A stretch of DNA of 60,664 nucleotides from contig JAQBUV010000005.1 in the NCBI GenBank assembly GCA_027623815.1, positions 1 to 60,664 on the forward strand, in the 5' to 3' direction. The notes beneath the pieces were generated by a model. It did no database searches. It was not told the DNA's origin and saw only the letters and a list, made by a program, of their open reading frames with translations. The first letter of the stretch is position 1. Each line of letters starts with the position of its first letter. A program made the translations under genes and the position numbers. Source of the stretch: Chloroflexota bacterium (lineage in GTDB: Bacteria > Chloroflexota > Dehalococcoidia > Lucifugimonadales > UBA3495). Below, in pieces: positions 35,149-58,324 of the stretch.

Positions 35149-35784
35149 ATGTCCGAGTTTAACTTCACCACATACTACGACTTTCGTTGACCCTTCGTAT
35201 ACAACGCAGCCGTGTGGCTGTCGAAGGTAAGAGAGACCACCGGACAGTCGGTGGATGTCGACTGGCAGCCCTTCTCGCTGGCCCAGGCCAATAGTGCGGA
35301 CAAGGGCGAGGATTTTAAAATCTGGGAGCAGCCGGGGATAATAGACGGTTCGGACACAGCGTTACTGGCTCACCGCGCTGGCTTGGCCGCCAAGCGTCAG
35401 GGTAAAGAGGCATTTGAGTCCTACTTGATGACCCTACTAAAGGCCCGCCACGAAGAGAAGAAAGACCTGACCGACCCGGCGGTGATCCACGATGCTGGGG
35501 TCGCTGCCGGCATCGACATGGGACAGTTCCAGGAGGACCTGCTCGATCCTGATCTGCTGCGGGAAATCGGCGAAAGCCACACCAAGGCCGTTGAAGAACA
35601 CGGCGCATTCGGTGTGCCGACCTATGTGTTCCCGGGCGGTGGCACGGCGTTCATCAAGATGTTCGTCCCCCCCGATGAACAGGCCGGAGCCATCTACAAC
35701 AACCTGAGCGAAATGGTCTCCACCCTGATGCACGTCGGCGAGGTCAAGCGGCCCCAGCCGCCCTGGCCCCACGGTGTTATCTAG
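35149..35784 (+). CDS. DsbA-family (Rv2466c-like) thioredoxin-fold protein, probable selenoprotein (U14)
   Basis: SD AGGAGGT then ATG 35149 reads MSEFNFTTYYDFR-TGA(35188-90)-PFVYNAAVWL, in frame with the 35212 ORF. TGA sits at the Cys of DxxCP. cis-Pro motif FGVPT present. Confidence 0.85.
35191..35227 (+). promoter_or_regulatory. Candidate bacterial SECIS element
   Basis: CCTTCG/CGAAGG lower stem and CAGCC-GTGT-GGCTG apical hairpin; loop starts 21 nt after UGA. Confidence 0.7.
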
Positions 35785-35796
35785 GAAGATTATCGC

Positions 35797-36504
35797 TTGA
35801 GCACGGAACGATTAACTGAACGGTTAGAGGCTGTGCTGGGTTTGTCCTTCAATAACCAGGGCTTGTTACAACAGGCCCTGGTTCATGGTTCCTTTCTCAA
35901 CGAGCAGGGCGGCTCATCGCTAGATTCCTACGAGCGGATGGAGTTCTTGGGGGATGCCGTCTTGGAACTGGTGGTCTCAACCGAAATTTACCACCGGCTG
36001 CCTCAACTTCCAGAAGGGGGACTGACCAAAATCCGCGCCGGTCTGGTGTGCCGGGAAAGTCTGTCCCAAGCCGCCCAATCTATCAATCTGGGCAGCTTCC
36101 TGTCCCTGGGCAGGGGTGAGGAAGCCTCTGGCGGCAGGGAGCGGGACTCGATTCTGGAAGCGGCATTTGAAGCCCTGGTTGCCGCCATCTATCTGGACCA
36201 GGGATACGAACCAGCTCGCGGCTTCATACTGAAATCCTTGCACGACGCCCTGGCAGACGTTTGTCGGCGGGGTTCTTCGTTAGACAACCCCAAGTCGGCT
36301 CTGCAGGAATATATTCAAGGCCAGGGCAAGCCAGCGCCTCGTTATCAGCTGGTGTCGGCGGAAGGCCCCGATCACAGTCCAGTATTCACCGTGGAAGTCT
36401 TGGTCGGCGATCAGGTCATTGGTGCGGGACGGGGCGCCAAGAAGTCCGACGCTGAACGCGACGCCGCCCTGGATGCTTTGCAAAAATCCGCTATCCAACC
36501 GTAA
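35797..36504 (+). CDS. rnc: Ribonuclease III
   Basis: ERMEFLGDAVLEL, LGRGEE.SGGR, AFEALVAAIYLD, dsRBD NPKSALQE...GPDH. Confidence 0.97.
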   Translation: MSTERLTERLEAVLGLSFNNQGLLQQALVHGSFLNEQGGSSLDSYERMEFLGDAVLELVVSTEIYHRLPQLPEGGLTKIRAGLVCRESLSQAAQSINLGSFLSLGRGEEASGGRERDSILEAAFEALVAAIYLDQGYEPARGFILKSLHDALADVCRRGSSLDNPKSALQEYIQGQGKPAPRYQLVSAEGPDHSPVFTVEVLVGDQVIGAGRGAKKSDAERDAALDALQKSAIQP

Positions 36505-36565
36505 ACCCAGAATACCGAGGACAACGGCCCTCGCATTCCCCGACGGTAAGTAAGATAATAATGCC

Positions 36566-37522
36566 ATGTTTAGCATCTTCAAACGCAATCGCGCCGAAAA
36601 CAAAAAGCAGACCGATGAAGGCGTCAAGCGCAGTCGGGAACGCTGGTTTGGCAAGGTCTTGGGCCTGCTACGTTCTTCCCGGCTGGATGACTCAGTGTGG
36701 GATGAATTAGAGGAAATCCTGATATCCGCCGATGTGGGTGTCGAGACTTCATTGGGCATCATCGAAGAGTTAAAATCCCAGGTCAAAGACCAACGTATTG
36801 AAGACCCGGAGCAGGCTTTTGAGAAGCTCAAGGAAACCTTGGCCCAGGGATTTGGCTCAAATAATTCCAGCGACGTATGGCTGGACAACGATGATGAACC
36901 CCGGCCCTACGTGATCTTGATGGTGGGAGTTAATGGCGTTGGCAAGACCACCAGCATCGCCAAGCTGGCCTACCACTTCAAGCGGGCGGGCAAGAAGGTG
37001 GTGCTGGGCGCAGCGGACACCTTCCGCGCCGCCGCTGAGGAACAGTTGGAAATCCTTGGTGAGCGCGTGGGCGTAGATGTTATCAGTCACAGTCCCGGCG
37101 CTGACCCCGGAGCGGTGGCTTACGACGCTTATCAGGCTGCCAAAGCCCGCAACGCCGACGTGCTGATTATCGACACCGCCGGACGTTTGCACACCAAGTC
37201 TAACTTAATGGAAGAGTTGAAGAAGGTGCATCGGGTGATCGCCCGCCTGGAACCCACCGCTCCCCACCAGGTGCTGCTGACCCTGGACGCCACCACCGGA
37301 CACAATGGTCTGGCCCAAGCCAAGTCCTTCAAGGACTCGGTCAATTGCACTGGCATCTTCTTGTCCAAGTTGGACGGTACCGCCCGGGGTGGCATCGCCT
37401 TGGCAATCCAGCAGGAACTACAGGTGCCCATACTGTTCATCGGCACCGGAGAATCGTTGGATGATATGGCTCCCTTCGACGCTAAGGACTTTGTGGACGC
37501 TTTACTTGCCCCGGTGTCCTAG
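36566..37522 (+). CDS. ftsY: SRP receptor FtsY
   Basis: GVNGVGKTTSIAKLA, DTFRAAA, DTAGRLH, KLDGTARGG, GTGE. Confidence 0.97.
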   Translation: MFSIFKRNRAENKKQTDEGVKRSRERWFGKVLGLLRSSRLDDSVWDELEEILISADVGVETSLGIIEELKSQVKDQRIEDPEQAFEKLKETLAQGFGSNNSSDVWLDNDDEPRPYVILMVGVNGVGKTTSIAKLAYHFKRAGKKVVLGAADTFRAAAEEQLEILGERVGVDVISHSPGADPGAVAYDAYQAAKARNADVLIIDTAGRLHTKSNLMEELKKVHRVIARLEPTAPHQVLLTLDATTGHNGLAQAKSFKDSVNCTGIFLSKLDGTARGGIALAIQQELQVPILFIGTGESLDDMAPFDAKDFVDALLAPVS

Positions 37523-37605
37523 CTTATTCCGGCTGGATTTCTCCGGGTTATCGCCCTGCTTCCCTCGATGCCTGCACCCCTTAATCAGCCCCAAGAGTAG
37601 CTGGC

Positions 37606-39990
37606 TTGATTGACGCCCTGGTCTGGTTCACCGCTATTGAGTTTCTGGGACTGCTGGCCTTTCCGCTGGCTTTCCTCCTCTTCAGCAGACTGCCCGACCG
37701 GGGCTACGCCTTCGCCAAACCGCTGGCCCTGGTGCTGGTGTCCTACCTGCTATGGATGCTGGGGCTGACCCAGTTCATCCCCAATTCCCCGGTTACCATC
37801 CTGGCCATTCTGCTGGCAATGCTGGTCATTTCAGGTTGGCTGCTGCGCCGTCATAAAACCGAGATACTCCGATTCCTGCGCTCAGAATGGAAAACGATCC
37901 TGATGGCTGAAGCGGTTTTCCTGGGCTTCTTTGTTTTCTGGCTGTTGATAGTTTCCGACGCTCCCGCCATCAACCACACCGAAAAACCTATGGATTTCGC
38001 GTTCCTGAACGCCATCCTGCAAAGTTCATCCTTCCCGCCGGAAGACCCCTGGCTGGCCGGGCACTCCATCAGCTACTACTACTTCGGTCATTTCATGATG
38101 GCCACTATCACGAAACTGACGGCGGTGCCTTCGCCGGTGGGTTACAACCTGGCGGTGGCCCTGGTGCCGGCATTATTGGCGATGGGAGTTTTTGGGCTGG
38201 TGTACAACTTGATACGGCTCTCCGGCGGCCGGGCCAGAGCAGCGATGAGTTTTGGCCTGGTCGCCACCGCCTTGCTGATTCTGATCGGCAATCTGGAAGG
38301 CACACTTGAACTGGCGAACGCTCAAGGTTGGGGCAACGATGGCTTTTGGCAGTGGGTTGGCATCAAAGGGCTGGAGGGGGCTGCCTCCGCCAGTCCGGGC
38401 GCGTTCCCGGAACAGTCCTGGTGGTGGTGGCGGGCCACGCGGGTAATCGACACCCTGAGCGGCGGCCAAAGCCTGGATTACACCATCACTGAGTTTCCCT
38501 TCTTTTCCTTTATTTTGGGTGACCTGCACCCCCACATGGTAAGTCTGCCCTTCCTGGTGATGTTCCTGGGAGCGTCCCTCAACATTTTCCAGACGCCAGA
38601 GCGGCTTGGCCTGGGCTGGCTGCTGCGGCATCCGTTGGAGTCAGTAATAGTTGCTTTGCTCCTGGGATCGCTGGCCTTCATCAACGCCTGGGACTTTCCG
38701 GTGTTCGCCGCCATCTTGGCGCTGGTGATCTTCGTCAAAGCATACCGGCCAAGCGGGCTAATGTTCGGCAAACAAGTGACCAACCCACTGGCCAGTGCGG
38801 CATCAAATACCCTGGTGACGATGGCCCCTATCGCCGCGATGGCGGTGCTCCTGTTCCTCCCTTTCTATCAAGGGTTCAGCAGTCAGGCGTCTGGAATTCT
38901 ACCCGTCACCGGCCCGGGCACCAGACCGTTTCTATTTTTTCTGGTGATGGGCCTCTTCGCACTGCTGGCAATTACCTTCCTGTTGAAGCAGCTTCCCGGA
39001 GTGAACCGTCCATCTGCGAAACAGGCTCCCATCATCCTGCTGGTGGCGTTGCTTTCAGTAGTCCCGTTGCTGTTGTGGGTATTGAGTGTGGCGGTGGCAG
39101 CCCTGATTACTGGTGACGGTACCGGAATTGCGTCCACAATTGGGGGCCGGATACCGTTGGTTCTACCCGGGTTGATCATCGCAAGCCTGGCCGCATTCAG
39201 CGCGTTGCAGCGAGTCAGCCATAACTCGAATCCCACGACTGCTTTTCCGTTGTTGTTGCTGGCGACATCCTTCTATTTATTGGTGGGCGCAGAGCTGTTT
39301 TTTGTGGTTGACCTCTTTGGAAATCGCATGAACACCGTCTTCAAGGTATACTTTCAGTCTTGGCTTTTGCTGGCGGTGGTTGGCGCTTACGGGTTGTACT
39401 ACTGGCGGGCGCACTGGGATTCCAGCAGCGTAGCTGTGAAGACACTCCAGTATGGTTGGTCGGGAGTGGTAGTGATTCTAGTGGCTGCATCGCTTTACTA
39501 CTCGGTGGGAGCGGTGATCAACCGAACGGGAATAACTTCCAGCAGCTATAGCTTTTCCGGCAAGACGTTGGACGGGCTGGCGTTTCTGAACCGTAGCGAC
39601 CCGGGTGAGTACGAAGCGGTGGTCTGGTTGAGGGATACGGCGGACAAAGGACGCATCGTCGAGGCGGTGGGCGGTGATTATTCCGACTACGGCCGGATTT
39701 CCTCCAGCACCGGATTGCCCACCATCCTGGGGTGGCCAGGGCACGAGCAACAATGGCGGGGGACTAGCAATCTGCATGAGGGGCGGGCCGAGGACGTGGC
39801 GAGCATCTATCAAAGCAACAATGCGGAGGAAGTGCTTCGATTGCTGAGCAAATATGGTGCCAAGTACGTGTATGTAGGGAGTCGTGAGCGCGCCAGCTAC
39901 GGCGGCACCGGAATGACCGATTTCACCAGCTTTATGAGAACCGCCTTTGCAGCCCCGGGCGTAGTAATCTACGAGAGAGCCCAAAATTAG
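37606..39990 (+). CDS. DUF2298 (Chlor_Arch_YYY) polytopic membrane protein, GT-C-like
   Basis: TEKPMDFAFLNA...PPEDPWLAGHSISYYYFG, TEFPFFSFILGDLHPH, RMNTVFKVY, GLPTILGWPGHE; paralog of the C-terminal half of 87-4589. Confidence 0.85.
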   Translation: MIDALVWFTAIEFLGLLAFPLAFLLFSRLPDRGYAFAKPLALVLVSYLLWMLGLTQFIPNSPVTILAILLAMLVISGWLLRRHKTEILRFLRSEWKTILMAEAVFLGFFVFWLLIVSDAPAINHTEKPMDFAFLNAILQSSSFPPEDPWLAGHSISYYYFGHFMMATITKLTAVPSPVGYNLAVALVPALLAMGVFGLVYNLIRLSGGRARAAMSFGLVATALLILIGNLEGTLELANAQGWGNDGFWQWVGIKGLEGAASASPGAFPEQSWWWWRATRVIDTLSGGQSLDYTITEFPFFSFILGDLHPHMVSLPFLVMFLGASLNIFQTPERLGLGWLLRHPLESVIVALLLGSLAFINAWDFPVFAAILALVIFVKAYRPSGLMFGKQVTNPLASAASNTLVTMAPIAAMAVLLFLPFYQGFSSQASGILPVTGPGTRPFLFFLVMGLFALLAITFLLKQLPGVNRPSAKQAPIILLVALLSVVPLLLWVLSVAVAALITGDGTGIASTIGGRIPLVLPGLIIASLAAFSALQRVSHNSNPTTAFPLLLLATSFYLLVGAELFFVVDLFGNRMNTVFKVYFQSWLLLAVVGAYGLYYWRAHWDSSSVAVKTLQYGWSGVVVILVAASLYYSVGAVINRTGITSSSYSFSGKTLDGLAFLNRSDPGEYEAVVWLRDTADKGRIVEAVGGDYSDYGRISSSTGLPTILGWPGHEQQWRGTSNLHEGRAEDVASIYQSNNAEEVLRLLSKYGAKYVYVGSRERASYGGTGMTDFTSFMRTAFAAPGVVIYERAQN

Positions 39991-40090
39991 CCGCGGAGGG
40001 ACCACCGGTAGATTCTCATTGAACCAGACTCGCGCTGGCGTATTTCATATCTGGCGTTGTAAAAACTCTCGGCTCCAGGGGAGTTTCCTC

Positions 40091-40176
40091 CGTCGCTCCG
40101 GCGCAAGCCGGAGTCCAGAAACGGCTCCTGGTTGGTGGCGAAACGCCACAGGATTCCGGCGTTGGCCGGAATTACG
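40091..40176. repeat. REP-like inverted doublet
   Basis: CGTCGCTCCGGCGCAAGCCGGAGTCCAG ... GGATTCCGGCGTTGGCCGGAATTACG with an inner GTGGCG-AAA-CGCCAC hairpin. Confidence 0.6.
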
Positions 40177-40232
40177 CCGTTCAGGACTTCGGCAGATATT
40201 TGAACAAAGGACAGGTTTAGGACTGAAACAAT

Positions 40233-42782
40233 TTGCCCCGCTTACTTAGCAAAAAATATTGGAGAGGCAGAATCGGCTGGCTGGAAGTCAGCTTCTTGAT
40301 ATTGCTGGCCACCGCCCTGGCGATGCGTCTTTGGGAACTGGGCGGACGCGCAATGCACTACGACGAGGCCATCCACCTTCACTACGCCTGGAAATTATCC
40401 AATCTGGAAGAGTACATCCATTCACCCTGGATGCACGGGCCATTCCAGATCGAATTTGTCGCCCTCATTTTTGGCATTTTCGGCGATACTGAATTCACTT
40501 CCAGGATAGGCTACGTTTTGTTCGGGGTTGCCCTGGTCGCGTTGCCCTATTTCCTGCGCCAGCATCTAGGACCGATTGGCTCCTTGTTTACCGCTATTAT
40601 GTTAACTGCGTCGCCCGTACTACTTTACTTCAGTCGATTTGGGCGCAACGACATCATCATGGTTTTTTGGGCCACGGCCCTGCTGGTACTGATGTGGCGG
40701 TACATCCACGAAGAGAAAAACCGATATTTGTACCTGGCATCGGCAATACTGGCCTTCATGTTTGCCACCAAGGAGACCGCCTATTTCATCGTGTTAATTT
40801 TTGGCGCATTAACGTTTTTCCTGGCGATTCCCCAGATAGCGCCAGTATTTTTCGGGCGAGCCAGAGTATCGCAATTGACCGGGCCAGCGGCATTCTTTCT
40901 GCTGATATTTACGCTGACATTGCCCCAATGGTCGGCAGTAGCGGGTCTGTTTCAGAGTTTGGTCGGACTGACCCTGGTCAACCCGGACGGTGTCGCTGGC
41001 GGTATAGTCGGCGCACCGCACTGGGCCGGGCCTATGGTGCTACTGCCGGTGTATTCCCCTCCAGCGTGGCTCCACGCCGTGCCCGCAATGGTTTTGGTCG
41101 TCGGGTTGCTTTGGCTGAGCAAATCCAGCGGATGGTCGGCAAAGTCGCTGTTGCCCAGAGTTGTCGCGCCGTTGGCGGCATCGGCGGCGGTGGTCTTGGC
41201 TATGTACCGGCCTTTGGGCCAAGTAATATCGCCAGAAAACCCTCCCTGGTTAGTTGACATTCCTCTAGCTGGCGCGCTGGTAGTCATCGCCATCGGCATT
41301 TTCTTGATACGACAACACCCCTGGCAAAGGAGTCTGGCACTGATTCTTGGCCCGGCGGCTTCAATATTAATCTATGCCGCCCTGTTCACTCCGGTGGTTA
41401 ACGTAGGCTCTGTGGTACGAAACGTGTTGCCCTCGGGCATCCCGGTGGACACCTCGCTCAATGGAGTTCCGGTCAACTTCATTGTGGCGGGAGGCATCCT
41501 GACGGTTGCCCTGGTAGTCTCCGCAGTGCTGGGTTTGGCCTGGCGGGGAGGAGTCTGGCTGGTCTGCGCCGCTATTTTCTATCTGGAGTGGCTGACCCTG
41601 TATACCACCATCTACACCAACTGGGCCGGGGCGTTCAGCGGGGTCTGGCAGGGTATGGGCTACTGGATTGCCCAGCAGGAAGTCGCCCGGGGCAACCAGC
41701 CCTGGTATTACTACTTTGTCGGACTTTCGGTGTACGAGCTACTGCCGGTGCTGTTCGGCGGTGTTGGGGCTGTCTATTTTCTCAAGAAGGGCGACATCTT
41801 CGGTCTGGCACTGATGTTTTGGGCCGGGCTGAGCCTGCTAGCCTACACCATCGCCAGCGAGAAGATGCCCTGGCTACTGGTGAATATTACCGTGCCCTTC
41901 ATTTTGCTAGCGGGCAAGTACCTCGGCGAACTGTTTGAGCGAGTCCGCTGGCGAGAAGCTCTTGCAAGGGGGACGGTTTTACTGTTGGTTCTGACGCCTG
42001 TGGGAGTAATCGGCGGCGCCTACATCTTGAGGAGTTATGTAGATATCGACGCTGAATTCTCCAGCGTCCAATGGCTGGCCTTAGCTGGCCTGGCCGCTTT
42101 GGCGGTGTTGTGCGCCCTGCTGGTCAGGCTCGGCCGCCCGCAATCGGGGGTGGCGATGATCGGCATTGGCGCTGCGGCACTACTGCTGGCTTTTGGAACC
42201 TGGGCCGCCCTCCGCGCCGCCTATACCTTTGATGACTCCCACCCAGAAATTCTGGCGTACGCTCAGGGCAGCGCCGATCTGCCCCAGACCTACCAGAATC
42301 TAAAGCAAGACGCCCTCCTTTCGACGGCAGAGAATGGCCCGGTCAAGGTGGACTATGACCTTTGGTATCCCTTCCAGTGGTACGTCCGCGATGAGGCCAG
42401 CGACGACGCGTTAAGATTCGCCTGTTTTAAGGACTCGAAGGAGGCCGACTGGAACGACAGTTGCAATCCCGCTTCTGAAATCTCCGACTCGGCTGCCCTC
42501 TTGTTGACCTCGTCCCATATCAGCGACGACTCCCAACTTCTGGACCGCTACGAGAAGTCGGGGCCGATGAGAAATTTGCTCTGGTTTCCCGAAAGCTACC
42601 GCCGACCGGCCGAGAATCGGCAATCGGAAGGCCCGGCTGAAGAGCTGTCCAGGGACTTTGCATTCTTCAGGGACATCGCCAGCAGCCGTGAAGCCTGGCA
42701 GAAGGCCCTCAACTACATTCTGTTCCGAGACCTGGAACGGGACTGGTATAACTCGGAATATTACAGTTATACCCGTAAATGA
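40233..42782 (+). CDS. TIGR03663-family (Agl23-like) GT-C/PMT-type membrane protein
   Basis: RLWELGGRAMHYDEAIH, HGPFQ, LYFSRFGRND, FATKETAY, YWIAQQ..RG.QPWYYY, EKMPWL. Confidence 0.8.
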   Translation: MPRLLSKKYWRGRIGWLEVSFLILLATALAMRLWELGGRAMHYDEAIHLHYAWKLSNLEEYIHSPWMHGPFQIEFVALIFGIFGDTEFTSRIGYVLFGVALVALPYFLRQHLGPIGSLFTAIMLTASPVLLYFSRFGRNDIIMVFWATALLVLMWRYIHEEKNRYLYLASAILAFMFATKETAYFIVLIFGALTFFLAIPQIAPVFFGRARVSQLTGPAAFFLLIFTLTLPQWSAVAGLFQSLVGLTLVNPDGVAGGIVGAPHWAGPMVLLPVYSPPAWLHAVPAMVLVVGLLWLSKSSGWSAKSLLPRVVAPLAASAAVVLAMYRPLGQVISPENPPWLVDIPLAGALVVIAIGIFLIRQHPWQRSLALILGPAASILIYAALFTPVVNVGSVVRNVLPSGIPVDTSLNGVPVNFIVAGGILTVALVVSAVLGLAWRGGVWLVCAAIFYLEWLTLYTTIYTNWAGAFSGVWQGMGYWIAQQEVARGNQPWYYYFVGLSVYELLPVLFGGVGAVYFLKKGDIFGLALMFWAGLSLLAYTIASEKMPWLLVNITVPFILLAGKYLGELFERVRWREALARGTVLLLVLTPVGVIGGAYILRSYVDIDAEFSSVQWLALAGLAALAVLCALLVRLGRPQSGVAMIGIGAAALLLAFGTWAALRAAYTFDDSHPEILAYAQGSADLPQTYQNLKQDALLSTAENGPVKVDYDLWYPFQWYVRDEASDDALRFACFKDSKEADWNDSCNPASEISDSAALLLTSSHISDDSQLLDRYEKSGPMRNLLWFPESYRRPAENRQSEGPAEELSRDFAFFRDIASSREAWQKALNYILFRDLERDWYNSEYYSYTRK

Positions 42783-42854
42783 TGCGCTTTGCCGGGCTAA
42801 GGGGGCAGCGCCTGTGGGATAATATCTGGGTCGAGTAATCAAGGATAGTCTCAA

Positions 42855-43952
42855 TTGAACATTAACAACTGGCGATTGTGGCTGGGCATCGGGATCAGTG
42901 TACTTTTCCTGCTCCTGCTGGCTTACAACGTAGACCTGAATGAAATAGCCACTTCGCTGGCCGAAGCCAATTACCTGTACGCGGTGCCGGCCATCGGACT
43001 CTATTTTGTGGCGGTATACTTTCGCTCAATCCGCTGGCGGTTCCTGTTGTCACCGCTGGCCACGGTGCCGGTCAACCGACTGTATCCAGTGGTGGTGATC
43101 GGCTACATGGCTAACAACCTGATGCCCGCCCGATTGGGGGAACTGGTACGGTCTTACTACCTGGAGCGTCGGGAGAACGTTAGCGGAAGCTCAGCGTTGG
43201 CGACCATCGCCATCGAACGAGTCTACGACGGTGTAACCCTGCTGGCCTTTGCCGCGATATCCGCGCCCATCTTATTGCTGCTGGGCATGTTCGACGGGGC
43301 CAGCGAGGCATACCGCACTACCGCCATCGCTCTGGCCATTGGAGTAGTTGGCCTGTTCCTGACCGCCTTGGCGGTGTTGACCTTCGCCACTTTCCCCTGG
43401 TTCTTGCGCCTGTTGGATTTGGCGTTGAGGGCGGTCCCTTCAGTGATTCGGCCCAAAGCCCGTCATCTGGCGATAAGCTTTATCGGCGGGCTGAGCGTGC
43501 TCAGTTCTCCCCGAAAGCACCTGGCGGTGTTCGCTCTTTCCCTGCCAGTTTGGCTACTGGAAGGGGCAATGTATTTCCTGATCAGCTATTCCTTTGGTAT
43601 TGACAGCTACTTTGACTCTTTTTGGATTCTGTTGCTGGCGATGCTGCTGCTGACCGCCACCTCCAATTTGGCCAGCGCGCTGCCCACCAGCGTCGGCGGT
43701 ATTGGACCCTTTGAGTTGGCCGCCCAACAGACGCTGGTGGTACTAGGCGTAGGGGCGTCGGTAGGCGCGGTTTACGCCGGATTCCTGCATGTGATCGCGC
43801 TATGGCTGCCGGTAAATCTAGTCGGCCTGGTGCTGCTTTGGAAGCAAAATCTCTCGTTGCGGGGACTGGCGGACGCCCCTCCTAAGGCCAGTGCCGAATC
43901 GCCTCGAGGGTATGGCGGCAGACTACCCATTGCCAGCGAGGATACTCCGTGA
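42855..43952 (+). CDS. Flippase-like protein (lysylphosphatidylglycerol synthase TM / AglD2-like family)
   Basis: RSIRWRFLL, GYMANNLMPARLGELVR, ERVYD, LPTSVGGIGPFE. Confidence 0.85.
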   Translation: MNINNWRLWLGIGISVLFLLLLAYNVDLNEIATSLAEANYLYAVPAIGLYFVAVYFRSIRWRFLLSPLATVPVNRLYPVVVIGYMANNLMPARLGELVRSYYLERRENVSGSSALATIAIERVYDGVTLLAFAAISAPILLLLGMFDGASEAYRTTAIALAIGVVGLFLTALAVLTFATFPWFLRLLDLALRAVPSVIRPKARHLAISFIGGLSVLSSPRKHLAVFALSLPVWLLEGAMYFLISYSFGIDSYFDSFWILLLAMLLLTATSNLASALPTSVGGIGPFELAAQQTLVVLGVGASVGAVYAGFLHVIALWLPVNLVGLVLLWKQNLSLRGLADAPPKASAESPRGYGGRLPIASEDTP

Positions 43953-45268: not shown

Positions 45269-45358
45269 GCTGTTCCCAAAATCGACTGTACGAGGTAGAA
45301 TGAACGAGTGGCTTTAGCTGACTAAGCCTGAACTCTATGAAATATTGTGGAGTGGATT

Positions 45359-47397: not shown

Positions 47398-47449
47398 GGT
47401 GATGTACCGCTTCTCGCCTTTTATGCGGCGAATATATTAGCTGAGATGG

Positions 47450-47890
47450 CTAAAACAGGGGCAATTTGGTGCCTTTCGCCCGGTACTGGCGGTCTTCCGA
47501 CGTACCGTCACGAGAGAAGTCACTGATAATATCGTAAATCCGCCCCATCTGCTGGTCAACACTGCGAGCGAAGAAATAAGGTGGCACCCACACGCCGCCG
47601 AAGGCCGCCACTACTTCCGGATAATCGTCGATGACAAATTCCGGCTCGAAGGGGATCTTCAGTTCTTCCAATCTTTCGTGAAAGTGATGGGTGGGCTTTT
47701 CGTAAACTCCACTGATGTAGGGTTTCAAGCTGTGTTTCTCAATGACTTCCCAGCGCTCGCCCATACCCGACCAGATGTAAATTTCATGCCCATCATCCAG
47801 GAGCTTTTGGAAGGTATCAGTAGTGCCGGGTCTGAGCGAATCATCCAGACCCAGGATGGTGTAGTCAACGTCGAAGAATATTTTCATCAC
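47450..47890 (-). CDS. Small capless HAD-superfamily phosphatase-like protein
   Basis: FFDVDYT (motif I), IWS (II), K (III), VIDD (IV). Confidence 0.7.
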   Translation of the reverse strand: MMKIFFDVDYTILGLDDSLRPGTTDTFQKLLDDGHEIYIWSGMGERWEVIEKHSLKPYISGVYEKPTHHFHERLEELKIPFEPEFVIDDYPEVVAAFGGVWVPPYFFARSVDQQMGRIYDIISDFSRDGTSEDRQYRAKGTKLPLF

Positions 47891-48053: not shown

Positions 48054-48410
48054 TTAGACGCTGGCGAGAGCCGCTTCAATCGCCTTTATGTTGCCGCCCA
48101 CCAGCAGGCGGTCGCCCAGCTTGATCAGGGGGCGGCGCACCAGCTTGGGTTCTTGCAGCATCAGCTTGACCATCTCGTCTTCAGAAATTTCCTGACCGAC
48201 CACGCCCATTAGCTTCAAGCTGGGACTGCGCCAGGCAAACATATCCGACAATCCCACCATTGACGCCAGGCCCCGTATTTCTTCCTCGGTGAAGCGGTCT
48301 TTGAAAAAGTCCCGCTCCTCCAACTCCATACCTTTTTGTAAGAGCAACTCCCTTACTTTGCGGCAGGTGGATCAACGAGGCCAGGTGTAAAAACCTACTT
48401 TATCGCTCAT
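48054..48410 (-). CDS. ArsC/Spx-family thioredoxin-fold protein, probable selenoprotein (U13, UxxC)
   Basis: ATG 48410 reads MSDKVGFYTWPR-TGA(48374-72)-STCRKVRELL, in frame with the 48347 ORF. C-terminal EPKLVRRPL is typical of ArsC/Spx. Confidence 0.87.
48325..48371 (-). promoter_or_regulatory. Candidate bacterial SECIS element
   Basis: TCCACCT...AGG-TA-TGGA lower stem and GTAAGGG-AGTTG-CTCTTAC apical hairpin; loop starts 22 nt after UGA. Confidence 0.65.
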
Positions 48411-48497
48411 AATTACTTCCTGCTAAAATCTCTTGGCCCCATTTTAACGGCTGTTTGCATCGCAGAAAAAGACTTCAACCCCATGTAATATTCGATA

Positions 48498-51116: not shown

Positions 51117-51220
51117 TGCGACCTTACCGTTGGGGGTAGAATCACCTCCATTCTACTCTACATCCATCGCCATAATAAACGACCGCTACGACACCCTGCT
51201 GCGATTATGAATTGAGCATA

Positions 51221-51247
51221 GAAAAGGGGCACGGTTGTCGTGCCCCT
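51221..51247 (-). terminator. Rho-independent terminator after fpr
   Basis: AGGGGCACG/CGTGCCCCT 9-bp stem followed by TTTC on the minus strand. Confidence 0.7.
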
Positions 51248-51282
51248 ATAGTTTCAATCTATTCTATTGCGATGATGAATTT

Positions 51283-52047
51283 CTACTCTTTCCAGAAGCG
51301 TTCCTCGATGAAGTTCCATCCAGCCAAGGCCGCCTTTTCTTTAACGTCGGCGATCATACCGGGATGACCGCAGGCATAAATCATGGTGTCTTCTTTAGGT
51401 AGGTTGAACCTACCCAAGTAGCTCTCAAATATGGCATTGACACGGCCCTTGGCACCAGTCCAGCCTACGTTGCGATCCTCGTCGGGACGGCTGCAGGCGG
51501 GTACAAACTTGACCGTATTCGGATACTTGACCGCCAATGAGGACAGCTCCCGGTCATAGGTCAACTCATCCTGGTAGCTGGCGCCCAGCAGGACGTAGAA
51601 GGTGTGCCCTTCCCGGCGCTCGTGCAGGTAATGGCGGATCATACTAATGCTTGGGGCGACTCCGGTTACCGTCGACAGCATCATATGATGATGGAAATTA
51701 TCCTTGAAGGTGAATACCCCTTTCGCGCGGGGACGGATGGACATGGTATCGCCGACCTTGAGCCGCCACATCTTGGGAGTCAGCCCTCCTTCGGGCACCA
51801 GTTCCACGAACACCTCCAAGAAGTCCTCATGCGGTGCTGACGCGATGGAATAGGCGCGTTCCACGCCCTCCTTACCCAGAGTGCAGTACTGGCCCGGCTT
51901 AAAATCGAAAACGCCGCCCTCTGGCACCAATTTGATTACCATCAAGTCATCGGTGACGTCCCGGCGTTCCACCAATTTGGCGCGGGGCAAACTGGCCAGC
52001 TTGCCTTCCCCTGACTCAACTTTTGATTCAACTTTAAGATTGGTCAT
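51283..52047 (-). CDS. fpr: Ferredoxin/flavodoxin-NADP+ reductase (bacterial Fpr type)
   Basis: FKPGQY, RAYSIAS, GGLTP, TVTGVAP, YACGHPGMI, C-terminal EERFW. Confidence 0.85.
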   Translation of the reverse strand: MTNLKVESKVESGEGKLASLPRAKLVERRDVTDDLMVIKLVPEGGVFDFKPGQYCTLGKEGVERAYSIASAPHEDFLEVFVELVPEGGLTPKMWRLKVGDTMSIRPRAKGVFTFKDNFHHHMMLSTVTGVAPSISMIRHYLHERREGHTFYVLLGASYQDELTYDRELSSLAVKYPNTVKFVPACSRPDEDRNVGWTGAKGRVNAIFESYLGRFNLPKEDTMIYACGHPGMIADVKEKAALAGWNFIEERFWKE

Positions 52048-52230
52048 TTTCTTCCCTGATAATTAAATTTTACTGTAGATTCGCTAACTGGTATCTGCTC
52101 CCTGCCTGCCCCCGGAGGCTGTTCAGGGTTTAATCACTAATTAATATGCTGACCGACACTAGATTAATTCGAAAGGGGGTAGACACCCAATTCTATTTCC
52201 CGCCTGCCGTACAAATTTTGCGCCTCATTG

Positions 52231-55083
52231 CTACGCGCTGCTGAGGGCCGAAACTTTGGCGATTCTTGCCGATAGAATCTCCAAGCCGGGCGCTTTAGAC
52301 ATGGGATTCTTTTCCTCGCTGGACTGCAGCTCTACGGCCAACTGGCCGAAGAGCGTGGTAACACTGATCACGCCGGGCGGGATTGAAGGGTCCAACCGGG
52401 CTAAACCAGACCAAGTCCCCCGGGGCGTCACTACTTCTACTGGATCACCGTCTTTGATTAGCTCGTTTTCCGCGTAACTGGGATGCAAAGACACCAGTTC
52501 ATCCCGCACCAGCCGGTTCAACTTGCCCGTCACCACGGTGGTTTCCCGGTCGGTCTGCAACAATACCCGGCCGGGGACAAACCAGCCGGAGTATTCCGAA
52601 TCCAGGTGAGGCTCGGGAGCTTGAAACACGGGAGTTATCGGATCGGCTTTACCGTTAGGAAAACCATTTTGATACAAGATCGGCGTGGCGGATGGATCAT
52701 CAGCGGTACATGGCCATTGGATGCCTCGACGTTCCTTGCCAGAGTAAAGCACTTGGGTCGGTTTGGGCATCTCCAAGCCGCTCCGAAACACGGTAGAAAC
52801 CTGGGATTCCAGCAGTGGGTAGGACACGCCAGAGTATATTGGACAGACCGACGCTATCTCATCCATGATCGCATAGGCAGCGGGATAGTCGAACCCGCTA
52901 TACCCCATCCGGCGGGCGAGTTCGCCGAACACCCATTGTTCGGGTTGAGCGCCACCACTCTTCGACTGGATGCTGGGCTTCACCCTTTGGATTCGCCGCT
53001 CCAGGCTGGTATAGGTACCGTCCTTTTCCGCGAAGGTAGACCGGGGCAGCACCACGTCCGCAACCTGGGCCAGCTGTCCCCAAAAGGTATCCTGCACCAC
53101 CAGAAAGTCCAGGTTCTGGAGGGCCGCCAAGCCATCACCCAATCTCCCATTGGTAAAGTTAGGGCTGTCGCCAATGATCAGCATGGACTTGATCTGGCCG
53201 TCCCGCGCGGCATTGATGGCATCAGCAACGCCCAACCCCTGGGAAACTGAAATTGTACAATTCCAGGATCTTTCCAACGCCTTCACCACCGTCGCGTCTC
53301 TCAACGAGAGGTTCCCGGGCAAACGGTTCGGCACGCATCCCACGTCGGAGGCTCCCTGCTCGTTCATCCCCGACCGCATCGGGAAAATCCCGGCGCCGGG
53401 CTTGCCAATGTTGCCAGTAAGGAGGGCCAAGTTTACCAGGGACAGCACGCAGTCCCGCTGTAACTCACCAGGGAGGTTATCCAAGGCGTAGACCACTGCT
53501 CCGCCGTCTGCTTGGGCGAAGATACGGGCAGCCTCGGCGATGGCTTCCTCCGATACGTGGGTGACCCGGGTCACGTGGTCCATATCTATGGAGTTAAGGG
53601 TATAGTGCAGGGTGGCCGGTTCCTCGCAGTTTTCATCCATCCACTCGGTTTGCTCCAGGCCCTGGTCTACCACCGCTTTGAGGATGCCGCCCAGCAGCAG
53701 CAACTCGGTTCCAGGCACGGGACGCAGCCAAGAATCGGCGTAGCGAGTCAGTTCGACTTCGCGGGGATCAATCACGATCAGCTTGGCGCCACGCTGTGCG
53801 GCCTTCTTGATGGGCACGCCCACCACGTTTTGATCTTCGGTCAAGTTGGAGTTGAAAACCAAAATACAGCCTGCATGCTCCAGTTCCCAGATGGAGTTGG
53901 TGGCGGCGGCATACCCCAATGCTCGTTCCAGTCCCACCGTAAGCTCCGGCTGGATGTTTGAGGTCTGGTCAACGTTATTGGTACCCATCACCACCCGGGC
54001 GAATTTCTGCGCCAGGTACAGTTCCTCGTTGGTGCTGTTGGGTGATGCCAGTAGCGCGAAGGCATCACCTTTGAACTCCGGCAGGCGGCCAGCGATTACG
54101 TTTAACGCCTCGTCCCAGGTGGCCTCCTCCAATTGCCCATTGCGACGGACTAATGGCTGCTCGAGCCTGGCCGAGTCGTTCAGGAATTCCAGGCCAAACT
54201 TGCCTTTGAAGCAGGCTTGACCGTGGTTGGAAGGCGAATTTAACTCCGGCACAGCGCGAATCATCTTACCGGCACCATTGAATTCCAGATTAAGCTGACA
54301 ACCCACCGGGCAATGGGGGCAGATAACCTGCTCGACCCGTCGAGCCTTCTCCCACTTATGTTCCCTTTCCACCAGGGCGCCCACGGGACACACATCAATA
54401 CAGGCGCCGCAAAACTCGCAGCCGGATTCCAGCAACGAATCGCCAAAGGATGTCCCAATCAACGCCCGACCGGAGCGGTCGGTAAAGCAGAGCGCGGAAT
54501 TGCCGCGCACCTCTTCACAGACTCGGACGCAACGCCCGCAGGTAATGCACAGGTTCAAGTCCCGGTCGTAGAAAGGGTCGCTGACCTCCAGAGGAATCTG
54601 GCGGTATTTGTACTCCAGCGGAGATTCCAGCTCCATGCCCAGATAACGGACAGTGTCTTTGAACTCGCATCGTTCGTTTTTTGGGCAGGTGATACAGCGG
54701 TCATTGACCGAAACATGGCGGAGGCAGACATCGCTGGGGCCGCAGATATCGACACGATGGCAGGTCAAGCATCCATTGGGATGTTCCGCTATGAGCATCT
54801 CCATCACCGAGCGGCGCAGTTCGTTGACTTCATGGGACTCACTGCGGATTTTCATCCCGTCGGCCACCGGCAGCGTGCAGGACGCCGGGAAGCCCCGGCC
54901 ACCCTCCACCGACACCACACACATGCGGCAGGCAGCGAAGGGCTTCATGCCGGAGTGGTAGCACAGATACGGAATATAGATACCGGCTTCAATGGCGGCT
55001 TCCAGCACCATCTTGCCGGGCTGAGTCTTGATATCCACGCCATCAATGGCGATGGTTATATCGGTGGTAATATTTTCTGCCAT
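52231..55083 (-). CDS. NuoG/FdhA-like Fe-S protein with a molybdopterin-oxidoreductase fold, lacking the FDH Mo-ligand Cys/Sec-His
   Basis: N-terminal 2Fe-2S (LCYH...ACRMC...SC), HxxxCxxC, two CxxCxxCxxxC motifs and CPHCPVGC...CFKG. NNVDQTSNIQ replaces NNxDxCARxC/UH. Confidence 0.85.
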   Translation of the reverse strand: MAENITTDITIAIDGVDIKTQPGKMVLEAAIEAGIYIPYLCYHSGMKPFAACRMCVVSVEGGRGFPASCTLPVADGMKIRSESHEVNELRRSVMEMLIAEHPNGCLTCHRVDICGPSDVCLRHVSVNDRCITCPKNERCEFKDTVRYLGMELESPLEYKYRQIPLEVSDPFYDRDLNLCITCGRCVRVCEEVRGNSALCFTDRSGRALIGTSFGDSLLESGCEFCGACIDVCPVGALVEREHKWEKARRVEQVICPHCPVGCQLNLEFNGAGKMIRAVPELNSPSNHGQACFKGKFGLEFLNDSARLEQPLVRRNGQLEEATWDEALNVIAGRLPEFKGDAFALLASPNSTNEELYLAQKFARVVMGTNNVDQTSNIQPELTVGLERALGYAAATNSIWELEHAGCILVFNSNLTEDQNVVGVPIKKAAQRGAKLIVIDPREVELTRYADSWLRPVPGTELLLLGGILKAVVDQGLEQTEWMDENCEEPATLHYTLNSIDMDHVTRVTHVSEEAIAEAARIFAQADGGAVVYALDNLPGELQRDCVLSLVNLALLTGNIGKPGAGIFPMRSGMNEQGASDVGCVPNRLPGNLSLRDATVVKALERSWNCTISVSQGLGVADAINAARDGQIKSMLIIGDSPNFTNGRLGDGLAALQNLDFLVVQDTFWGQLAQVADVVLPRSTFAEKDGTYTSLERRIQRVKPSIQSKSGGAQPEQWVFGELARRMGYSGFDYPAAYAIMDEIASVCPIYSGVSYPLLESQVSTVFRSGLEMPKPTQVLYSGKERRGIQWPCTADDPSATPILYQNGFPNGKADPITPVFQAPEPHLDSEYSGWFVPGRVLLQTDRETTVVTGKLNRLVRDELVSLHPSYAENELIKDGDPVEVVTPRGTWSGLARLDPSIPPGVISVTTLFGQLAVELQSSEEKNPMSKAPGLEILSARIAKVSALSSA

Positions 55084-55097
55084 ACTTGCCCGCCTCA

Positions 55098-55240
55098 GAC
55101 CCTATATCAAAACGTGGTTCGACAAGTCTGTCCCGAGCTTGCCGAAGGACTGGCCACGAACGGTGGCGAACCCGTCATCCGCTCATCCTGAGCTTGTCGA
55201 AGGATAACCTGTGTCAATCACCAAAGTTTTGAATAGCCAA
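55098..55240. mobile_element. Second, inverted and degenerate copy of the REP-carrying MITE
   Basis: 55177-55205 is the exact reverse complement of 28548-28576 (29 bp). Ends are GACCCTATATCAAAAC and GTTTTGAATAG. It has an extra nested CTGTCCCGAGCTTGCCGAAGGA unit. Confidence 0.65.
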
Positions 55241-55266
55241 TTATTACTCAGGAGCGACCCTGAATT

Positions 55267-56973
55267 TTACCTTCTGGTTAGCTTTGGTGAAAATTTCACG
55301 CCGAGGCACGCCCCAGTGGGGCAGCGTCGCTCTAGAACATGAGCGTCAAACTCAGGGCCAAAATACTTGATGGCCGAAGAAACCGGGTTGAACCCCAGTT
55401 GACCGTGGCCGCACAACGACCCGGCTTGCATGTTCAAACCAACGCTGCGCATTAACTCCAGGTCGCCGCGCTCGCCCTCCAAACGGCAGATGCGCTCCAG
55501 AACTTCCAGCAAATGGCTCATTCCCATTCGGCAGGGGAAGCACTTGCCGCAAGATTCGTACTGGCAGAAGGCGATCAAGGCCCGGGTCAGATCGACTATG
55601 CAGGTGTCTTCATCCGCCGCTATAATGCCGCCAGAACCCAGGATTGCCCCGGCCTCCCGGAAAACTTCAAAGTCCAGGGCCAGGTCCATATTGTCGACCC
55701 CCAACACGCCCCCCAGCGGCCCACCAGTCTGCACCAGTTTCAGATCCTTACCGCCTTTGATTCCGCCAGCGATTTCATAAAGCACTTGGTTCAGATTTAG
55801 GCCCATGGGAACTTCCACCATGCCGGTGTAGTTCAGCGGGCCAGACAGACACAGAATGGCCGTGCCAGTGCTGCGTCCGTGGCCAATACCGGCGAACCAT
55901 GCTCCGCCTTTGGCCACAATCTCCGGCACATAGGCCAAAGTCTTGACGTTATTAATGTTGGTCGGTTTGCCAAAGAGACCCACCTGGGCTGGAAAAGGCG
56001 GTCGGTATCGGGGCATAGACCGCTTGCCTTCAATGGCCTCCATCAGAGCAGTCTCTTCACCAGAGACATAAGAGTCTCCGGTAAGAGCGACTTCCAGGTC
56101 GAAGCTGTAATCGCTGCCCAGGATGTTCTGGCCGAGCAAACCCAATTCATAAGCCTGCTCCACCGCGCCCCGAGCACGATCTACCGGGCCGTCGTGGCCG
56201 TGGCGGACGAATATATACCCGTTGCTGGCTCCGGTGGCATAGCCAGCCAAGATGATGCCCTCAACCACCGTATGGGGATCGCTTTCCAGAATGCCCTTGT
56301 CGTTGAAGGCTCCCGGGTCGCCTTCCTCACAGTTGCACAGTACATACTTGACCGGCTCTTTGGAGCCAGCCAGGAAGTTCCACTTGGTGCCGGTAGCAAA
56401 GGCCGCTCCCCCTCGCCCCCGCAGACCGGATGCGTTAACTTGCTCCAGCATTTCCTGGGCGGTCATTTCGGTCAGCGACTGGTTAAGGGCCTGATAACCG
56501 CCATTGGCGATGTACTGATAGATGTCACCCGGATCAATGTTACCGGCGTTACGCAGAGCAATGCGCGTCTCACTGGCTTTCATTGGGTGAGCACTCAGCG
56601 CGGGAATGCCGTCGATGCTGCTTTCGCCAATGTATCCCAGAGCCAAGTGAGCCACCGGGGTTCCCAAGACAACATGGGAGGCGACTATCTCCTCGGCAGT
56701 CTCTGGCGTTACGTCACGGTAGATGACCCGGGAGCCGCCGGGCAGTTGCACATCGACCAGGGGCTCAGCAAAACAAGGGCCTAAGCAGCCAACTTCGCTG
56801 ATTTGAGCGGCCACACCATGACGCTGCAAGGATGACTCCAGCGCGACCAGAACGGCATCGGAGCCCGCTGCTTTGCCGCAGAGGGCCGCGCCGACTCTAA
56901 TCCAGGGAGTCTCCCCTTCGGTTAGCGACTTCCAGCGGCGGTCGGCCTCGGCGGCTAGCTCGACGAAACTCAT
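55267..56973 (-). CDS. nuoF: NuoF/HydB-like NADH-binding FMN subunit with an N-terminal thioredoxin-like 2Fe-2S domain
   Basis: SGLRGRGGAAF, NCEEGDPGAFND, GEETALMEAIEG, GGPLGG, ESCGKCFPCR, SLCGHGQ. Confidence 0.88.
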   Translation of the reverse strand: MSFVELAAEADRRWKSLTEGETPWIRVGAALCGKAAGSDAVLVALESSLQRHGVAAQISEVGCLGPCFAEPLVDVQLPGGSRVIYRDVTPETAEEIVASHVVLGTPVAHLALGYIGESSIDGIPALSAHPMKASETRIALRNAGNIDPGDIYQYIANGGYQALNQSLTEMTAQEMLEQVNASGLRGRGGAAFATGTKWNFLAGSKEPVKYVLCNCEEGDPGAFNDKGILESDPHTVVEGIILAGYATGASNGYIFVRHGHDGPVDRARGAVEQAYELGLLGQNILGSDYSFDLEVALTGDSYVSGEETALMEAIEGKRSMPRYRPPFPAQVGLFGKPTNINNVKTLAYVPEIVAKGGAWFAGIGHGRSTGTAILCLSGPLNYTGMVEVPMGLNLNQVLYEIAGGIKGGKDLKLVQTGGPLGGVLGVDNMDLALDFEVFREAGAILGSGGIIAADEDTCIVDLTRALIAFCQYESCGKCFPCRMGMSHLLEVLERICRLEGERGDLELMRSVGLNMQAGSLCGHGQLGFNPVSSAIKYFGPEFDAHVLERRCPTGACLGVKFSPKLTRR

Positions 56974-57036
56974 AACCGCCTGCGCGAACCGAGCATGAAC
57001 ATTCCATTGGGTTGGTATCGAAATAGTCGCGGCACT

Positions 57037-57528
57037 TCAGTTGCCACCTTGGCCGTGAGGGCTGGGGCTGGCAAGGAGTGCGGTTACGGCGGCCCGCACT
57101 TTCTCCGGGGACTGCCGCCCCATTAGATTATGATCGGCGGATATGACCGGAGCCTGAGCGCAGGCACCCAGACAGGTGTTGTAGCGCAAAGAGAGTTTTC
57201 CATCTGAAGTATCACCCTCGCCTTCAACCCCGACCTGATCCAACGCGGCGGCAATAACCGCCATCGCCCCCATCAAATGGCAAGAGGGCCCCCAGCAAAG
57301 CTCTAGCTGGTGCTCACAGGGAGGGTCGAACCTGAAGTTGGGGTAAAAAGACGCTACCGCCCAGACGTCGTTGATGGTGGTGCCGGTGAGGTCGGCGACT
57401 TCTTCCACCGCGTCTTTCGGAATGTAACCAATGGCGTCCTCCACTGCCAGCAGTGAGGAAAGAACGGTAACGGTAGGTTGCGGCTGGTTGTGGATAGCGG
57501 CGGTTATCCTTTGCTTGAGTCCATCCAT
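57037..57528 (-). CDS. nuoE: NuoE-like 2Fe-2S subunit
   Basis: VASFYPNF, CWGPSC, CLGACAQAP. Confidence 0.9.
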   Translation of the reverse strand: MDGLKQRITAAIHNQPQPTVTVLSSLLAVEDAIGYIPKDAVEEVADLTGTTINDVWAVASFYPNFRFDPPCEHQLELCWGPSCHLMGAMAVIAAALDQVGVEGEGDTSDGKLSLRYNTCLGACAQAPVISADHNLMGRQSPEKVRAAVTALLASPSPHGQGGN

Positions 57529-57566
57529 AACACGCGCACTCAGCTACTCCACAGCAAATTATCGGT

Positions 57567-57584
57567 TCGTGAAATTTGTAACAA
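57567..57584. promoter_or_regulatory. Candidate Rex (NADH/NAD+ sensor) operator upstream of nuoE
   Basis: TCGTGAA-ATTT-GTAACAA versus consensus TTGTGAA-N4-TTCACAA (3 mismatches). Confidence 0.35.
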
Positions 57585-57682
57585 TCTCCACCGCAATGGT
57601 AGCACAGAGGCCGTCGGCGATTCAACTAGAAACGGCTAGGATTGGAAGGAAATAGCTTAGTCCACAATCAGCAATTCAGCCA

Positions 57683-58324
57683 CTAGGAAGCCGGGGCCTC
57701 CAGCAACTTGCTCATCGCCGATTGGAAAATTTCGTAGGGGTGCGCCCCGGTGAAGAGCAGGTTGCCCACCACAAAGGTTGGTATCCCTCGGATGCCGTGC
57801 CCCAGGGCTTGCTGGTATTGCTCCATAACGGCAGGTGTGTACAGGCTGCTCTCCAATCCCGCCAGCAACTCAGTTGAATTCAACGAAACTTGCTGAGCCA
57901 GGCCCTCAATCACCGCCAGGTCGCCCAAGTCTTGTCCATCTTCCCAGTAGGCTTTGTAGGCCGCGTGGTGGAACTCCATGAACTTGCCCTGCCGCTGGGC
58001 GTACTCGGTGGCCTCCAAGATGTACATGGTGTTGGGAGTGACTTTGGGGGGCCGCATGATCAAGTTGGACTCGCTGGCTTGACTCCGCAGAGGCTCGCTA
58101 AGCTGGCCGTCGGCCTCACCGGGTCGGGGTTGCCGCACAATACCTTCCTTGGGGGTATCTGGCCGCAGCAAATACGCTTGGCCGACGATTGAAATGTTGT
58201 AGTCTTGACTCAACCGGTCGACTCTTTCCAGGCCGACATAGCACCAGGGTCAAATATAGTCGTACCAGACTACTACTTTAACCGGGTCGGAAGTGTTGAG
58301 GGGATGCTGGACAGGTTCGGTCAT
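57683..58324 (-). CDS. FrnE/DsbA-family thiol-disulfide oxidoreductase, probable selenoprotein (U25, UxxC)
   Basis: SD AGGAG then ATG 58324 reads ...VKVVVWYDYI-TGA(58252-50)-PWCYVGLER, in frame with the 58213 ORF; GIRGIPTF, TGAHPYE. Confidence 0.9.
58214..58249 (-). promoter_or_regulatory. Candidate bacterial SECIS element
   Basis: GTCGGC-CT-GGAA-AG-A-GTCGAC hairpin; loop starts 20 nt after UGA. Confidence 0.7.

Follow-up and report, generated by a model that had tools for sequence, protein, structure and literature searches.

Three genes with in-frame TGA codons on a Dehalococcoidia contig as very probable selenoprotein genes of the DsbA-like and ArsC/Spx families

Background

Selenoprotein families with DsbA-like and ArsC-like domains have been described from bacteria. 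The Sargasso Sea study already listed an arsenate reductase family (UxxS, where U is selenocysteine, Sec) and a DsbA-like family (UxxC) (PMC1088965), and the table of a 2026 review, in the portion available, has entries for DsbA-like form 1 (UxxC), DsbA-like form 2 (DxxUP), an ArsC-like protein (UxxC, NF041106) (PMC13188914). The available part of that review also gives the bSECISearch consensus for the bacterial Sec insertion sequence (SECIS), namely an apical loop of 3-9 nucleotides (nt), an upper stem of 4-16 base pairs (bp), a G in loop positions 1-2, a distance of 16-37 nt from the UGA and a minimum free energy (MFE) of at most -7.5 kcal/mol (PMC13188914). In BSepDB, as far as its available description goes, two Dehalococcoidia metagenome-assembled genomes (MAGs) are among the ten richest bacteria listed, their selenoprotein genes numbering 49 and 46 (PMC13326102). 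Here we analyze three genes, designated A, B and C, in a stretch of 60,664 nt from a Chloroflexota bacterium (positions 1 to 60,664 of the forward strand of contig JAQBUV010000005.1, assembly GCA_027623815.1; hereafter the window), each of which contains a TGA codon within an otherwise intact thioredoxin-fold reading frame. We conclude that all three are very probably genuine selenoprotein genes, decoded by the standard bacterial Sec pathway, and that they are further instances of families in the 2005-2026 catalogues from a lineage already recorded as rich in selenoproteins.

The organism belongs to the SAR202/Dehalococcoidia group, as judged by the names of its relatives: those possessing gene C were deposited as Dehalococcoidia or SAR202-cluster MAGs, and one of the two MAGs in BSepDB (the L077 record) carries a gene C product 68% identical to that of the window. 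Full-text literature searches on selenocysteine in SAR202 and on the selenoproteome of Chloroflexi found no dedicated study. The genome in question comprises 2.76 Mb in 154 contigs and is 93.85% complete.

Three genes with TGA at the active site

Reading through TGA in the window extends three open reading frames (ORFs) of genetic code table 11 at their 5' ends to an upstream ATG. The features thus defined are as follows (position, strand, description; aa, amino acids):

35149..35784, + strand, gene A, predicted DsbA-like selenoprotein of 211 aa with Sec14 in D-F-R-U-P-F-V
35188..35190, + strand, gene A predicted Sec codon TGA, preceded by CGT (base -1 at 35187)
35206..35222, + strand, gene A SECIS hairpin, GCAGCC / GGCUG-U-C, loop GUGU 21 nt after the UGA
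48054..48410, - strand, gene B, predicted ArsC/Spx-family selenoprotein of 118 aa with Sec13 in U-S-T-C
48372..48374, - strand, gene B predicted Sec codon TGA, preceded by CGT (base -1 at 48375), base +4 being U
48338..48356, - strand, gene B SECIS hairpin, 7-bp stem GUAAGGG / CUCUUAC, loop AGUUG 22 nt after the UGA
57683..58324, - strand, gene C, predicted DsbA-like (FrnE-type) selenoprotein of 213 aa with Sec25 in U-P-W-C
58250..58252, - strand, gene C predicted Sec codon TGA, preceded by ATT (base -1 at 58253)
58217..58237, - strand, gene C SECIS hairpin, GUCGGCCU / AG-A-GUCGAC with one bulged A, loop GGAA 20 nt after the UGA

A preliminary description of the window, made from the sequence and its ORFs, had proposed three UGA-recoded thioredoxin-fold genes between 35188 and 58252. 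These limits coincide exactly with the outer two TGA codons, and the domain assignments bear the proposal out. Each gene has a single in-frame TGA, and in each it occupies the active site of a thioredoxin-type fold. The Pfam DSBA model matches the products of gene A (62.7 bits, residues 8-165) and gene C (105.2 bits; cut-off 25.6), the ArsC model matches that of gene B (59 bits; cut-off 24), and all three matches cross the position of the TGA. The initiating ATG lies 13 (A), 12 (B) and 24 (C) codons 5' of the TGA and is preceded, 5-8 nt upstream, by a Shine-Dalgarno-like AGGAG or AGGAA.

Further in-frame TGA codons in the window did not withstand inspection. The one between the nuoE-like and nuoF-like ORFs, which on read-through would give a product of 753 aa, acts as a normal stop codon: it separates the two Pfam domains, and the nuoF-like ORF has its own ATG 20 codons past the TGA that ends the nuoE-like ORF. 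Other read-through ORFs of the window look like non-coding or antisense frames, and the remaining window candidates from the genome scan described below proved, on comparison of coordinates, to be antisense inside long genes.

The decoding machinery

The preliminary description had suggested locating selA, selB, selC and selD, with a lack of tRNA-Sec or SelB in complete relatives speaking against recoding. All four are present in the genome, each above its curated or gathering cut-off: a single tRNA-Sec with anticodon tca (66.4 bits; gathering score 47), SelB (355.6 bits; cut-off 242.25), SelA (555.3 bits; cut-off 267.9) and SelD (389.6 bits; cut-off 125), the last of which itself carries one in-frame TGA. 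A second tRNA-SeC across a contig end, reported by ARAGORN in its default circular mode, disappeared in linear mode. SelD was found in 107 of 151 Chloroflexota genomes searched (150 others and that of the window), and 100 of these 107 matches have one TGA, both tallies taking in G078 and G185, two unpublished genomes. In the Chloroflexota sampled here, SelD thus normally contains Sec.

In the standard pathway, SelD would make selenophosphate and SelA would convert Ser-tRNA(Sec) to Sec-tRNA(Sec). SelB-GTP with its Sec-tRNA(Sec) would then bind a hairpin that starts about 15-18 nt after the UGA, and, competing with RF2, SelB would bring the Sec-tRNA(Sec) into the A site. In the products of genes A, B and C the incorporated Sec is predicted to take the place of the N-terminal nucleophilic Cys of the thioredoxin-fold active site.

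Conservation of TGA among orthologs

Orthologs were collected by six-frame searches of 40 related genomes, supplemented by additional fetched copies, and the alignment column of the TGA was located in each. Almost all genomes of the family, and many of the order, contain orthologs with exactly one in-frame TGA. The Sec column holds TGA in 35 of 36 orthologs of gene A, in 33 of 33 of gene B and in all 56 orthologs of gene C that cover it, one further copy of gene C being cut by a contig end; pooled, this amounts to 124 of 125, with TGA retained down to about 40% identity. Furthermore, conservation at the protein level extends into the segment upstream of the TGA, in which the motif is intact. 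The UGA aligns with Cys in homologs of all three genes: in the remaining gene A ortholog (G038, 31% identity), in a public homolog 69% identical to gene B (P0011) and in distant homologs of gene C from other phyla (L103, L106, L107). Independent nonsense mutations, which the preliminary description had named as the alternative to be checked by way of orthologs, are excluded, because the TGA column is conserved in orthologs and Cys occupies the same position in homologs.

SECIS hairpins

The preliminary description had placed apical loops at 20-22 nt after the UGA, each with a G in its first or second position, and had regarded them as fitting the bacterial SECIS consensus. The measured distances are 21 (A), 22 (B) and 20 (C) nt, and the three hairpins satisfy the loop, G and spacing rules of the bacterial model. 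With respect to its MFE rule, the bare perfect stem of gene B has -5.7 kcal/mol by a simple measure, while the 60-nt fold with its lower stem has -17. The further suggestion that the three share one geometry does not hold, since what they share is the generic bacterial model; over all 27 predicted Sec sites of the genome the distance from UGA to loop runs from 11 to 32 nt, and a spacing of 20-22 nt is therefore not special. An Rfam scan of the window returned no families.

A simple hairpin test required a perfect stem (4 bp or longer), a dG of -5 kcal/mol or lower, a loop that begins 14-30 nt downstream of the UGA, and a G within its first two positions. It is passed by 20 of the 27 predicted Sec sites, as against 40 of 648 ordinary TGA stops of the genome, and the hairpins thus exceed what chance would give.

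Compensatory changes among orthologs back the hairpin strongly in gene B and moderately in gene A. The gene B helix is paired in 97.8% of alignment cells, and none of 500 shuffles reached the values observed; four of its seven pairs have changed on both sides (UA/CG, AU/GC, AU/CG and GC/AU; 24 cells), and sliding the partner strand by 1-3 columns lowers the pairing to 35-62%. For gene A there are two alternative registers, used by different orthologs, which are 79.6% and 86.7% paired and have respectively four and three pairs changed on both sides. In gene C the hairpin is supported by conservation and by suppression of synonymous change. Most of its orthologs carry, in place of the GGAA loop, the triloop GAG atop a stem of 10 bp. 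Normalized synonymous diversity is lower in hairpin codons than outside them for gene A (0.38 vs 0.80), gene B (0.43 vs 0.84) and gene C (0.23 vs 0.74, p=0.00015), with a pooled p of 1.7e-7 for this suppression.

Alternative explanations

Several observations weigh against reading these genes as selenoprotein genes. The reading rests on DNA sequence rather than on protein data. Folded singly, the 60-nt segments do not differ significantly from shuffled ones (z of -1.26, -1.83 and +0.12 for A, B and C), and support for the hairpins was therefore drawn from orthologs. The gene C helix, 86.5% paired over 48 distinct orthologs, is nearly invariant and shows zero covariation, so that covariation neither supports nor opposes that structure. 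Gene B scores below every specific curated cut-off among NCBIfam models. Finally, two full-length public homologs of gene B (P0022 and P0034) have W at the Sec position, in F-Y-W-W-P-R-W-S-T-C, which reflects either a genuine TGG codon or a TGA that the gene caller translated as Trp.

The W in these two homologs is also what might be cited for regarding the TGAs as nonsense mutations in pseudogenes, or for a genome-wide reassignment of TGA to Trp or Gly. Besides its conservation in 124 of 125 orthologs, TGA terminates 318 of 1322 genome ORFs of at least 300 codons, among them mutS, nuoL and nuoN of the window, and the only tRNA with anticodon tca in the genome is tRNA-Sec. We thus consider this the least probable of the alternatives and, for practical purposes, refuted. 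The preliminary description had likewise pointed to TGA as an ordinary stop elsewhere in the window, which is correct for nuoL, nuoN and mutS and incorrect for its fourth example, nuoA (19100-19519, - strand), which terminates with TAA. Hardly more credible is the view that public gene calls are right, with translation starting at the first ATG or GTG after the TGA and the upstream part being a leader or a separate small ORF. It has in its favor the public call for gene B itself, of 91 aa and starting downstream of the Sec, and the table-11 ORFs without read-through of 190 (A), 97 (B) and 176 (C) aa; proteins of this kind would be devoid of the first β-strand and of the whole active-site motif, and the view is at odds with the conserved upstream segment that bears the motif, with Pfam matches that run across the TGA and with the Shine-Dalgarno sequence and ATG upstream of it.

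Somewhat more serious, though in our estimate still improbable, is the proposition that the UGAs are decoded through SelB and SECIS but mostly as Cys, from mis-charged Cys-tRNA(Sec) under scarce ocean selenium, such that the products are for the most part ordinary thiol enzymes. tRNA(Sec) can carry Cys in other bacteria, Cys homologs of A, B and C exist and are presumably functional, and nucleotide sequence does not distinguish Sec from Cys delivered by tRNA(Sec). Against this stand the encoding of SelD itself by way of a UGA, the maintenance of 26-27 UGA genes, and the retention of TGA over TGC or TGT in all but one of the orthologs covering the column; from these we argue for selection for selenium itself. 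Decoding of the three genes as selenoproteins thus remains by a wide measure the most probable explanation.

Known families and predicted chemistry

Gene C has both defining features of DsbA-like form 1, the PF01323 domain and UxxC. Compared with that family (COG2761; originally described from the Sargasso Sea metagenome), it is alike in domain, motif, Sec position (the first Cys of CxxC) and a SECIS immediately following, with no substantive difference. Its U-P-W-C motif would suit an FrnE/DsbA-like selenol/thiol oxidoreductase. Gene A, compared by motif and Pfam family, corresponds to DsbA-like form 2, having PF01323 and DxxUP in the form D-F-R-U-P; it has no match among NCBIfam models. In 7dk9_A, the closest solved relative, a lone Cys stands where gene A has Sec, and the gene A protein has zero cysteines, for which reason we predict a single-selenol enzyme (U-P-F-V) that would be recycled by an external thiol. 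A literature look-up on PDB 7dk9 did not find function information.

The best solved relative of gene B is Spx: U13 and C16 align with its CxxC pair (C10-x-x-C13), with Sec opposite Cys10, so that gene B would be an ArsC/Spx-family protein in which the pair has become UxxC (U-S-T-C). It shares the ArsC Pfam domain with known ArsC-family selenoproteins; its scores are 29.3 bits against NF041106 (cut-off 85), 40.9 bits against the arsenate reductase model TIGR00014 (UxxS; cut-off 106.05) and 67.4 bits against the Spx/MgsR model TIGR01617 (cut-off 75.05). Because these scores fall under every curated cut-off, gene B represents a separate subfamily, and its product may be either a reductase or a redox-sensing regulator. 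For all three products, chemistry and substrates are predictions from motif and homology.

The selenoprotein findings leave current understanding unchanged, and their value is of two kinds. For biology, they provide an ortholog-supported example of marine Dehalococcoidia/SAR202 leaning heavily on selenium for thiol-type redox chemistry. For annotation, standard gene callers truncate or split genes A, B and C and at least 23 others of the genome, so that public protein sets for an abundant deep-ocean lineage lack redox-enzyme N-termini that bear the active site.

The base preceding the Sec codon

The nucleotide immediately 5' of the Sec-UGA (position -1) is U at 23 of the 27 predicted sites, against 5.7 expected from codon usage (Poisson-binomial P=2e-15, the 23 sites spanning 16 assigned families and paralogs not being independent in this value). 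The other four sites have TGG (three) and GAA (one), none of which has a synonym ending in U, and U is thus found at 23 of the 23 sites that permit it. Codons -2, +1 and +2 show no comparable excess, and at ordinary TGA stops U precedes in 152 of 651 cases, with 126 expected. At position +4, U is rare, being present at one of the 27 sites, that of gene B.

Among orthologs from the same family, codon -1 is CGT throughout for gene A (24 of 24) and in 22 of 24 for gene B, while in other families of the order it ends in T in 4 of 11 (A) and 3 of 9 (B). For gene C, 52 distinct orthologs have ATT (47), GTT (4) or ATA (1). In 24 genes for Sec-containing SelD (G078 and G185 left out), the Gly codon at -1 is GGT in 14, GGC in 8 and GGG in 2.

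The published SECIS model, in the parts of its description available, has no upstream element, in contrast to the nearly fixed U at -1 here. The accessible portions of PMC12013277, PMC13188914 and PMC4513850 contain no mention of an upstream recoding determinant, a statement confined to these three sources and not extended to the literature at large; the preference may be a new observation. We tentatively raise the possibility, toward which we lean less than away, that the Sec-UGA recoding signal in the family of the window genome includes the nucleotide 5' of the codon. If U(-1) were functional, a U-ending, wobble-read codon in the P site might tilt the competition between SelB-Sec-tRNA and RF2, and such an effect could help the lineage to maintain dozens of selenoprotein genes. 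The rule, if true, would add a minor new element to the mechanism of recoding and give selenoprotein gene finders one more inexpensive feature.

The selenoproteome

The preliminary description had surmised a large and systematically mis-annotated selenoproteome and had proposed a genome-wide scan for in-frame TGA with a hairpin. In the scan that was run, every in-frame TGA of the genome was scored for two-sided coding potential, a redox-type motif and a hairpin, and pairs with U opposite U or C were sought among paralogs by BLAST of the genome against itself as an additional source of candidates. The 39 candidates passed to Pfam yielded 23 firm genes, 1 weak one and 15 rejections. With genes A, B and C, the genome has 26 firm selenoprotein genes and one weak candidate, which agrees with the surmised size. 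The true number is probably higher, since one gene of A, B and C failed to pass the first filter of the scan. The two Dehalococcoidia MAGs of BSepDB, of the same lineage by record names, have the higher counts given above (49 and 46), compared with at least 26 here from a less sensitive scan. Outside the window the predicted genes are:

UGSC-family proteins (PF24696), 6 firm (L153-L158; contigs C10, C37, C26, C93, C141, C15)
AhpC-TSA/redoxin-type proteins, 5 firm, one fused to NHL repeats
BtuF-like binding proteins (CxxU), 2 firm
GrdB-like proteins with U-P-x-C, 2 firm (L161, L162; contigs C107, C47)
Rdx/SelW-like proteins, 2 firm
rhodaneses with U in the active-site loop, 2 firm
DUF3179 protein with W-U-P-L-C, 1 firm (L166; contig C28:1-771), a paralog having Cys there
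deiodinase-like protein, 1 firm
glutaredoxin-like protein, 1 firm
SelD, 1 firm
HesB-like candidate, weak (17.6 bits; cut-off 26.3)

All six UGSC paralogs have Sec in U-G-(S/G)-C; one of them is fused within a read-through ORF of 680 aa, with an uncertain start position. In the GrdB-like pair the Pfam GRDB match stops 1-2 residues before the U, at the end of the model. The 15 candidates rejected after the Pfam check were L172, L176, L177, L178, L181, L182 and nine others. Two of the 15, L186 and L189, are ordinary genes in which the domain begins after the TGA. A fortieth candidate, antisense to an Rdx-family gene on contig C73, was dropped before Pfam, and own-genome BLAST pairs with U opposite residues other than Cys were taken as wrong-frame paralog matches and ignored.

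The mis-annotation is supported in the case of gene B. Among the matches listed, 117 of 120 public homologs have 78-107 aa, shorter than the 118 aa of the read-through product, with no more than 88% of the query covered. Of seven public sequences, four (the call in the window and three others) start after the TGA, one has Cys and two have W.

Genomic context and the FdhA-like protein

The three genes reside in separate conserved contexts among the 12 relatives examined. Gene A adjoins rnc in 12 of 12. In 11 of 12, gene B is flanked by mutS and a 146-aa ORF, with mutL beyond the latter; in the window this ORF (47450-47890, - strand, between gene B and mutL) has a good coding score and no Pfam match. 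Gene C is directly upstream of, and adjoins, the nuoE-like gene of a nuoE/nuoF/FdhA-like cluster in 8 of 12, a context that goes unmentioned in the available descriptions of DsbA-like form 1. When 27 genes were placed at random on the contigs, 966 of 5000 trials had three or more of them within a stretch of 23.1 kb. Three such genes within 23 kb can be accounted for by chance, and their density, because the genome encodes at least 26 selenoproteins, needs no special explanation. On account of these separate housekeeping contexts and of the random-placement test, clustering is rejected as a sign that A, B and C form a functional unit, and the redox network put forward in the preliminary description is not supported.

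The cluster next to gene C contains the following gene:

52231..55083, - strand, FdhA-like molybdopterin-oxidoreductase homolog, 950 aa, not a selenoprotein

It stands in a nuoE-like/nuoF-like cluster, together with 55267-56973 and 57037-57528. As the preliminary description had noticed, the FdhA-like protein has neither Cys nor Sec at the Mo/W site: Gln-Pro aligns with the Cys-His of Rhodobacter capsulatus FdsA (6tg9_A), the Mo-ligand pair. It scores 488.5 bits against the Fdh-alpha model TIGR01591 (cut-off 666.25), without the Sec/Cys-His of that group, and 315.3 bits against NuoG (cut-off 470.05). Among bacterial proteins its family is the most frequent carrier of Sec, and the lack of Sec or Cys there contrasts with the selenium use seen elsewhere in the genome. 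By its ORF sizes, the nuo operon at about 8196-19519 seems, with nuoN, nuoL and nuoA as the Pfam-checked members, to be without E, F and G, and for this reason the nuoE-like/nuoF-like/FdhA-like cluster might be the NADH-input module of complex I.

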